Shown piece after piece: positions 15,157 through 16,166 of a DNA stretch of 64,000 bases (its first letter is position 1; the number at the start of each line of letters is the position of its first letter). Origin of the DNA: Escherichia coli 042 (GTDB lineage: Bacteria > Pseudomonadota > Gammaproteobacteria > Enterobacterales > Enterobacteriaceae); NCBI RefSeq assembly GCF_000027125.1, contig NC_017626.1. One strand, written 5' to 3'. Made by a program: the position numbers and the translations under genes. Below the pieces are notes generated by a model. That model was not told the origin of the DNA, ran no database searches, and worked only from the letters and a program-made list of their open reading frames with translations.

Positions 15157-15249
15157 GCTCGCTTTAAAACATATCATGAAACTGGGTATGTTTTCTCTGC
15201 CTGCTCTGGGATCGCCGGGGCGGGCATTTTTTGCATGAGACATAACGAA

Positions 15250-15759
15250 CTATTTAAGACATTCCTGCAAATCAGCCAATGTTGCCATCAGTATCATAGA
15301 ATCGACAGGCGATGGTTCAAACCCCACTCGCAGATAAAACTCACGGGCCTGGTCTGATAACGCATGGACCAACATTCCGCGAATACCAATGACTTCAGCC
15401 GCCTGTAGTACTCGTAGACCGGCATCTCTGACCATCGCACGACCGATGCCCTGACCCTGTAATGATTTATCTATTGCCAGACGACCAAGTACTACAACAG
15501 GGATCGGTTCTGGCATATTTCGGCGAAATCGTCCTGTCGCGACATACGTTTCAACGGCGCTGGAAGCAAGCGAATAATATGCCAAAACGTTGCTATACGT
15601 ATCACAGCTAACAAATGTACGTGATGCGCCGGCAAGCTGATTTTTTAGGGCTCTCTGCTTTAGCCAGTTATCCATCGTTTCTACTCCCGAGCAAAAAGAG
15701 GTGAATTGATGCCTTGCCATGAGTGGCTCGGGGGCCTGAATCATTTTTTTTGCTCCCAC
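15250..15759 (-). CDS. GNAT-family acetyltransferase toxin (TacT/ItaT/AtaT-like; presumed aminoacyl-tRNA acetylating toxin)
   Basis: 169-aa ORF (164 aa if started at the ATG at 15744, which overlaps the upstream gene stop as ATGA and has GGGAG about 9 nt upstream). Contains acetyl-CoA binding motif A ([20 protein letters not shown]) and motif B region ([10 protein letters not shown]), and lies directly downstream of a DUF1778-like gene. Absent at this locus in K-12 (from memory). Confidence 0.8.
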
Positions 15760-16034
15760 GGCGCGGGTGTTTGCATGGTTTTGCGTAATGCAGCATTGGG
15801 CGCGGGGGGCTGATCCAGACGATTCAAAAATAGCTGGTAATCATCAGAATCGATCCTGAAAATTCTCTGCTCAATGAGCGCCTCTTCAGCTGCGGCTCTG
15901 GCGGCCTCAAGGACAAATTCGGTGCGATTTTTTCCTCGGGCTTTAGCGGCCCGGTCAATAAGATCGCGTTCTGCGGGTTTTATGCGCAAATTTAAAGATT
16001 CGCGCCTGGTTGGAATGTTATTGGCTGCTGGCAT
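15741..16034 (-). CDS. DUF1778 (TacA/ItaR/AtaR-like) antitoxin of the GNAT toxin
   Basis: ATG at 16034 with AAGGA 8 nt upstream gives 97 aa [61 protein letters not shown]..., matching the conserved DUF1778 antitoxin pattern; the track ORF starts earlier at 16079. Confidence 0.8.
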
Positions 16035-16065
16035 AAATATATCCTTCGGCTTTGCATGGATGATA

Positions 16066-16095
16066 ATTATACAGCGCATGTAACGCTAATGTCAT
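16066..16095 (-). promoter_or_regulatory. Putative sigma-70 promoter of the toxin-antitoxin operon
   Basis: Minus strand reads ATGACA-N18-TATAAT, about 30 nt upstream of the antitoxin ATG; overlaps a short imperfect inverted repeat (GTAATGACATTAGCGTTAC) that could be the operator. Confidence 0.45.
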
Positions 16096-16117
16096 TACAA
16101 CAAAGATGCTACCCTGA

Positions 16118-16146
16118 AATAAAAAAGCCCTGGCAGTTACCAGGGC
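16118..16146 (-). terminator. Intrinsic terminator downstream of rne
   Basis: Perfect 7-bp stem GCCCTGG / CCAGGGC with 6-nt loop (16127-16146), followed on the minus strand by TTTTTTATTT; lies just after the rne stop codon. Confidence 0.6.
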
Positions 16147-16166
16147 TTGATTGCTTGAGCTAATTA

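Follow-up and report, generated by a model that had tools for sequence, protein, structure and literature searches.

The described systems nearest to the pair analysed here are the GNAT toxins of Salmonella and their antitoxins. TacT, TacT2 and three other clade D toxins acetylate almost only Gly-tRNAGly, as determined by in vivo LC-MS, and cells poisoned by TacT toxins can be rescued by peptidyl-tRNA hydrolase (PMC9177977). In TacT2, the residues K29, R88 and Y137 are each needed for toxicity, R88 being located in a positively charged groove, and the Y137F substitution abolishes toxicity (PMC5959882). Moreover, a single E29K change strongly shifts the toxicity of TacT2: K29 is the active, Enteritidis-type residue, whereas E29 makes the Typhimurium protein weak and less stable, and a single residue accounts for the lack of toxicity of moderately over-expressed Salmonella Typhimurium TacT2 (PMC5959882). 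The present study concerns a two-gene module in a 64,000-nucleotide stretch of Escherichia coli 042 (NC_017626.1; hereafter, the window), which is very probably a self-contained and intact TacAT2-like toxin-antitoxin cassette, tRNA-acetylating by homology, with its elements in the order promoter, operator-like palindrome, antitoxin gene and toxin gene. RefSeq already lists the pair through automatic annotation, under the names "GNAT family N-acetyltransferase" and "type II toxin-antitoxin system TacA family antitoxin", and no paper on this particular E. coli copy or locus was found in the literature.

The module lies between flgL (14203-15156, plus strand) and rne (16167-19352, minus strand), both read from the ORF listing and the sequence. 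The gap between them extends from 15157 to 16166 (1010 bp) and contains two ORFs, both on the minus strand. The first gene (15741..16034, minus strand) is tacA2-like and encodes a TacA/DUF1778 ribbon-helix-helix antitoxin of 97 aa, as assigned by Pfam and PDB matches; its ORF in full spans 15741-16079, with the ATG at 16034 as the likely start and a ribosome-binding site, AAGGA, read from the sequence 7 nt upstream of that ATG (16042..16046, minus strand). The second gene, tacT2-like, encodes the GNAT toxin (ORF, Pfam and PDB match) and ends in a TAG stop at 15250-15252; it gives 164 aa from an ATG start (15250..15744, minus strand) or, alternatively, 169 aa from a GTG start (15250-15759). The same 164- and 97-aa calls were made by the RefSeq annotation pipeline in other strains. 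The antitoxin stop and the toxin start overlap by 4 bases (ATGA), the antitoxin gene coming first on the same strand, and the toxin gene is predicted to be translationally coupled to the antitoxin gene.

Alignments with K-12 and strain PA45B delimited a strain-specific segment of ~880 bp (15233-16115, with its left end within 15233..15249), which stands in place of a 66-bp spacer in K-12. Its left edge directly abuts the T run of the flgL/FlgO terminator and its right edge stops a little short of the rne terminator; a search for target-site duplications, direct repeats and terminal inverted repeats at the insert borders found none. On the left, outside the module, lies the equivalent of the sRNA FlgO in the flgL 3' UTR (15156..15232, plus strand; K-12 annotation b4826, alignment and PMC10578931), whose terminator hairpin at 15198-15226 is followed by a T6 run (terminator scan and fold). 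On the right, the intrinsic terminator of rne (16119..16148, minus strand; terminator scan, fold z = -3.3), common to K-12, is located directly upstream of the module's promoter. FlgO gave no match in the Rfam scans and was recognised only via the K-12 annotation; the Rfam scan of the window returned the elements expected for this part of the chromosome, namely the RNase E 5' UTR element (rne5, 260 bits, 19377-19713) and the sRNA SraB (210 bits, 23010-23178). In K-12, the flgL-rne gap is 195 bp long and FlgO is its sole content. These data bear out the preliminary description, in which a gap of about 1.0 kb was said to hold a compact minus-strand two-gene operon and K-12 to have only a short spacer here with no GNAT/DUF1778 pair.

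Profile and structure-database searches assigned both proteins to known families. The antitoxin matched Pfam TacA1 (PF08681, formerly DUF1778; E = 1.5e-26, residues 14-88), together with a weak match to RHH_1, and its top PDB match was chain C of 7AK7 (TacA2; E = 1e-45), to which it is 81% identical in an ungapped position-by-position comparison. The differences from TacA2 cluster at residues 5-12 and 58-75, and a 16-residue C-terminal stretch is the same in both proteins, with no differences. KacA and further DUF1778 antitoxin chains were also among its PDB matches, the antitoxins of the AtaRT, KacAT and TacAT3 type being remote (E = 2e-7 to 2e-4). The toxin matched three GNAT families in Pfam (Acetyltransf_7, Acetyltransf_10 and Acetyltransf_1) and carries the acetyl-CoA motif QGQGIG at residues 95-100, which fits the pattern Q/R-x-x-G-x-G/A. 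Among all PDB chains, its top match was chain A of 7AK7 (E = 8e-76, 257 bits), and it is 73% identical to Salmonella TacT2 without gaps, position by position, differing at 43 of 162 aligned positions. All 15 of its PDB matches were GNAT acetyltransferase chains; those identified by name or paper, namely TacT (E = 4e-44, 154 bits), TacT2, TacT3 and KacT, are tRNA-acetylating toxins, and AtaT, judging by the entry codes, is presumably also among them. AtaT, KacT and TacT3 were remote matches (E = 1e-15 to 4e-20), AtaRT and KacAT matching at E = 1e-16 to 1e-20.

The identity of entry 7AK7 was resolved from residue numbering. Its toxin chain equals a natural Salmonella protein (P0062) save for Y137F and M33I, and the numbering of Y137F, R88 and K29 together with the P0062 sequence indicates that 7AK7 is TacT2. 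A reading of 7AK7 as TacAT3 was rejected, given that TacT3 is 6G96 (PMC5959882), which matched the window toxin only at E = 2e-15. The Pfam and PDB matches place both ORFs far beyond chance, and the pair is assigned by its sequence to the TacAT2 branch, on the TacT/TacT2 side of the family. The families expected earlier, a 97-aa DUF1778-type antitoxin and a GNAT acetyltransferase of 164-169 aa with an intact acetyl-CoA motif, were thus both recovered by HMM search, and characterised GNAT toxins turned out to be the best PDB relatives. The broader placement in the TacAT/ItaRT/AtaRT/KacAT family was supported and could be refined: the GNAT/DUF1778 type was retained with TacAT2 as the closest system, whereas ItaT was not among the PDB matches of the toxin and AtaRT and KacAT are remote.

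It could be argued that the two genes encode an ordinary acetyltransferase, acting on a small molecule or a protein, beside a ribbon-helix-helix transcription factor, and thus no toxin-antitoxin pair, considering that the toxin matched only generic GNAT families in Pfam and that the NCBIfam search returned no match to a specific model. This explanation is highly improbable, however, because the identifiable PDB matches are tRNA-acetylating toxins, the partner is a family-specific TacA1/DUF1778 antitoxin that has the same C-terminal stretch as TacA2, and the 4-base overlap with the antitoxin gene first is a signature of the family. The features by which a GNAT/DUF1778 module can be recognised in sequence were all found, namely the operon order and overlap, the TacA1 antitoxin, and a GNAT toxin with both the motif and the tyrosine. 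In the alignment with TacT2, K29, R88 and the catalytic Y137 are all present in the window toxin, an intact GNAT protein with the residues that TacT2 needs. The remaining 27% of residues that are unlike TacT2 leave room for the potency and the tRNA choice to differ.

Upstream of the antitoxin gene, a consensus scan identified, a short way past the rne terminator at 16148-16125, a sigma-70-like promoter for the operon (16066..16095, minus strand; 11/12 matches), with the -35 hexamer ATGACA (16095-16090), an 18-nt spacer and the -10 hexamer TATAAT (16071-16066). Both hexamers are kept in Escherichia sp. E4385, a member of a cryptic clade, and largely in Salmonella tacAT2. The DNA homology to Salmonella tacAT2 starts ~70 nt ahead of the antitoxin start codon and continues as far as the toxin stop, and thus includes the promoter although the genomic sites are unrelated, suggesting that the promoter travels with the genes. 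In addition, the -35 hexamer is overlapped by an operator-like site, GTAATGACATTAGCGTTAC (16080..16098, minus strand), which corresponds in degenerate form to the palindrome GTAATGACA-N-TGTCATTAC, its right half-site agreeing at 6/9 positions. The 19-bp palindrome is located 37-75 nt before the starts of TacA2-like antitoxin genes (loci L007-L054) in relatives from the Alpha-, Beta- and Gammaproteobacteria, with the variants GTAGTGACA.. and GTACTGACA.., and its outermost pair covaries (T..A in E. coli versus C..G in Salmonella). Sites with at least 14/18 matching positions were detected in 43 of the 49 upstream regions taken from relatives and in none of 2450 shuffles, the consensus coming from the same sequences. 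The 19-bp site resembles what the operator of a ribbon-helix-helix antitoxin should look like, and the palindrome therefore offers a ready candidate operator for TacA2-type antitoxins, perhaps family-wide.

At the other end of the operon, the terminator scan and folding gave no evident intrinsic terminator beyond the toxin gene on the strand that encodes it. The toxin gene stops 17 nt from the FlgO/flgL terminator, in convergent orientation. On the plus strand, this hairpin folds with -31 kcal/mol for an 85-nt stretch and z = -3.5 (15156-15262), whereas the same region folds poorly on the minus strand (z = 0.2) and has no U tract there. Since no operon terminator is evident, transcripts could arise that are antisense to FlgO and to the 3' end of flgL. 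This arrangement would be relevant if the Escherichia TacAT2 lineage had acquired a property that Salmonella lacks, be it a different aminoacyl-tRNA preference or a coupling to its neighbours, which we consider distinctly unlikely. In the case of coupling, the operon may be driven by transcription running on from rne, and its own read-through may give rise to RNA antisense to FlgO; RNase E expression or motility control would then be tied to toxin activity.

The favoured reading, a TacAT2-like cassette, suggests a mechanism modelled on the characterised relatives. The antitoxin would dimerise via its N-terminal ribbon-helix-helix and, alone or with the toxin, bind the palindrome over the -35 hexamer, by which the operon would be repressed. 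Its C-terminal region is assumed to neutralise the toxin dimer, as in other GNAT/DUF1778 pairs. Upon a drop in antitoxin, the toxin would move the acetyl group from acetyl-CoA onto the alpha-amine of a charged elongator tRNA; the acetylated aminoacyl-tRNA would be unusable in translation, so that ribosomes would stall at Gly codons and growth would stop, and peptidyl-tRNA hydrolase could recycle the damaged tRNA and reverse the damage. The preliminary description considered the tRNA specificity of this copy unreadable from sequence. That view proved somewhat too cautious: with TacT2 and the clade D toxins being Gly-specific (PMC9177977), Gly-tRNAGly is a reasoned prediction for the window toxin and, by analogy, its somewhat favoured target.

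The distribution of the pair was surveyed with the insert-specific 861 bp as the query against 5426 complete E. coli genomes. The module was present in 686 of them (12.6%), always as one chromosomal copy, and was at least 99% identical in 681 of the 686 carriers. In the six carrier loci inspected, it resided in the flgL-rne gap in every case (6/6); the other 87% of the complete genomes are without the pair, and their gap is ~195 bp. Carriers include E2348/69-derived EPEC, strain ST648 and avian pathogenic isolates, and the named carriers fall, as we presume, in more than one phylogroup (B2 and F). The pair was hence rightly regarded as strain-specific accessory cargo, and it is ordinary E. coli accessory cargo with nothing unusual in its anatomy compared with its family. 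A phage search returned no copy of the cassette and the PADLOC defence-system library no match. The plasmid search gave two 100%-identical matches in records of 0.73 Mb and 4.9 Mb, both of which are presumably chromosomal sequence filed as plasmid, so that no true plasmid copy was found.

A few deposited sequences deviate from the intact arrangement. In HS-02 (NZ_CP172818.1), a 180-bp toxin remnant, listed in RefSeq as a partial GNAT pseudogene (L058:1500-2320), was considered as a deletion intermediate and rejected, as the whole gap is ridden with homopolymers; the long homopolymer runs, with only the ends of the module recognisable, indicate a local assembly or polishing artefact. Two Logan contigs (P0001 and P0004) each encode, in a single contig, a 260-aa antitoxin-toxin fusion in which the reading frame changes shortly ahead of the antitoxin stop (…TPAPGAKKMIQ…), probably owing to a sequencing indel; if real, it would be a fused toxin-antitoxin protein.

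Alternatively, the module may be attenuated or decaying, a near-neutral remnant with a weak toxin like that of Salmonella Typhimurium and no working switch for growth arrest. Consistent with such a state, one residue suffices to leave Typhimurium TacT2 non-toxic on moderate over-expression (PMC5959882), the window toxin is unlike TacT2 at more than a few positions (the 43 noted above), the majority of E. coli live without the module, and the toxin of ST648 is annotated as frameshifted in one deposited genome. However, the decisive residue in the window toxin is the active-type K29, with R88 and Y137 also intact; flgL is frameshifted in the ST648 record as well, which suggests sequencing errors, and every other locus inspected has intact ORFs. 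Furthermore, the 141-aa toxins in the protein database, which were compared with the window DNA over the start region, are identical to it in DNA, indicating start-codon choices of the gene caller, and their reading as N-terminal truncations was thus rejected. The toxin protein is also 96% identical between E. coli and E4385, whereas the DNA of flgL and the rne 3' end differs by ~10%, which is compatible with constraint, DNA and protein identities not being directly comparable. Attenuation or decay is therefore unlikely, and an intact cassette is the preferred reading.

As for the origin of the module, Escherichia sp. E4385 carries the pair at the same site, and toxins belonging to the same 90%-identity cluster are encoded by several further Escherichia strains that are unclassified. 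A contig scan revealed only relatives of 46-71% identity, in other Proteobacteria and at no Escherichia locus; these distant relatives are scattered in the Proteobacteria, some of them on rhizobial and Zymomonas plasmids, a pattern typical of a horizontally mobile toxin-antitoxin family. The flgL-rne gaps of outgroups, located via FlgL homologues, were empty in E. albertii (197 bp), E. fergusonii (147 bp) and Citrobacter koseri (162 bp), as in K-12, and the spacers of E. albertii and K-12 are clear homologues. Between E. coli and E4385, the module diverges by 6.6% versus ~10% for the flanks, and within E. coli by 0-1% versus 0.4-3.4%; module divergence thus tracks flank divergence, suggesting that the insertion is old. 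The module presumably passed from lineage to lineage through homologous recombination in its flanks.

An ancestral presence of the pair at this site in Escherichia, with the K-12-like empty gaps as deletions and a core pair being lost, would accommodate the occupied cryptic clade, the scaling of module divergence with that of the flanks and the borders without mobile-element scars. Nevertheless, the 66-bp spacer is homologous to that of E. albertii and unlike any part of the module, and a deletion could not have recreated it; the gaps of E. fergusonii and C. koseri also lack the pair. The K-12 spacer was also examined as a deletion scar of the module and rejected, since the alignment scores were no better than those of shuffles. 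Given that the two spacers are homologous to each other and unlike the module, the empty allele appears to be ancestral rather than a deletion derivative, which makes an ancestral pair improbable and supports the earlier statement that the module was inserted between flgL and rne. Under the preferred reading of an old insertion, the cassette would have taken the place of the 66-bp spacer in an ancestor that was common to E. coli and cryptic Escherichia clades or that exchanged DNA with them, and would since have been kept as a presence/absence polymorphism in E. coli.

The flgL-rne gap of Salmonella bongori (L062:3455-5828) is occupied by two other genes, one for an MFS transporter of 400 aa and, divergent from it, one for a LysR-type regulator of 299 aa. 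With the toxin-antitoxin pair in Escherichia and these two genes in S. bongori, the gap appears to receive accessory genes repeatedly, and such genes seem to land there recurrently in enterobacteria. The module itself extends the accessory toxin-antitoxin repertoire of E. coli by one uncharacterised GNAT toxin that is probably Gly-tRNA-specific, and its significance goes little beyond cataloguing.

Compared with known systems, the window pair is most like Salmonella enterica TacAT2 (PDB 7AK7; Rycroft et al. 2018, PMC5959882), with which it shares the gene order, the ATGA overlap and an antitoxin of 97 aa, the toxin being of 164 aa here versus 163 aa in TacT2. The likeness extends to the protein identities (73% for the toxin and 81% for the antitoxin), to the conserved K29, R88 and Y137 and the identical C-terminal stretch of the antitoxin, and to a promoter/operator region homologous in DNA. 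Salmonella TacAT (TacT/TacA; PDB 5FVJ and 7AK8) shares the family and the fold and is more distant than TacT2 (154 versus 257 bits). E. coli AtaRT, Klebsiella KacAT (clade A), Salmonella TacAT3 and O157 AtaRT2 likewise combine a GNAT toxin with a DUF1778 antitoxin and are alike overall in mechanism, but they are remote in sequence from the window pair; AtaT and KacT, moreover, have a broad specificity. AtaRT and AtaRT2 are found at other loci (ECs4307-4308 and ECs4261-4262, respectively), and O157 AtaRT2, a distant relative, was therefore rejected as the same locus. With respect to TacAT2, an orthologue would be expected to agree in both identity and position, and the two copies disagree in position: Salmonella tacAT2 adjoins a PAP2 phosphatase gene and dsbD-cutA-dcuA, whereas the window copy lies between flgL and rne and is not syntenic with it. 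Thus, the window copy is a sister lineage within the TacAT2 subfamily rather than a positional orthologue of Salmonella tacAT2.
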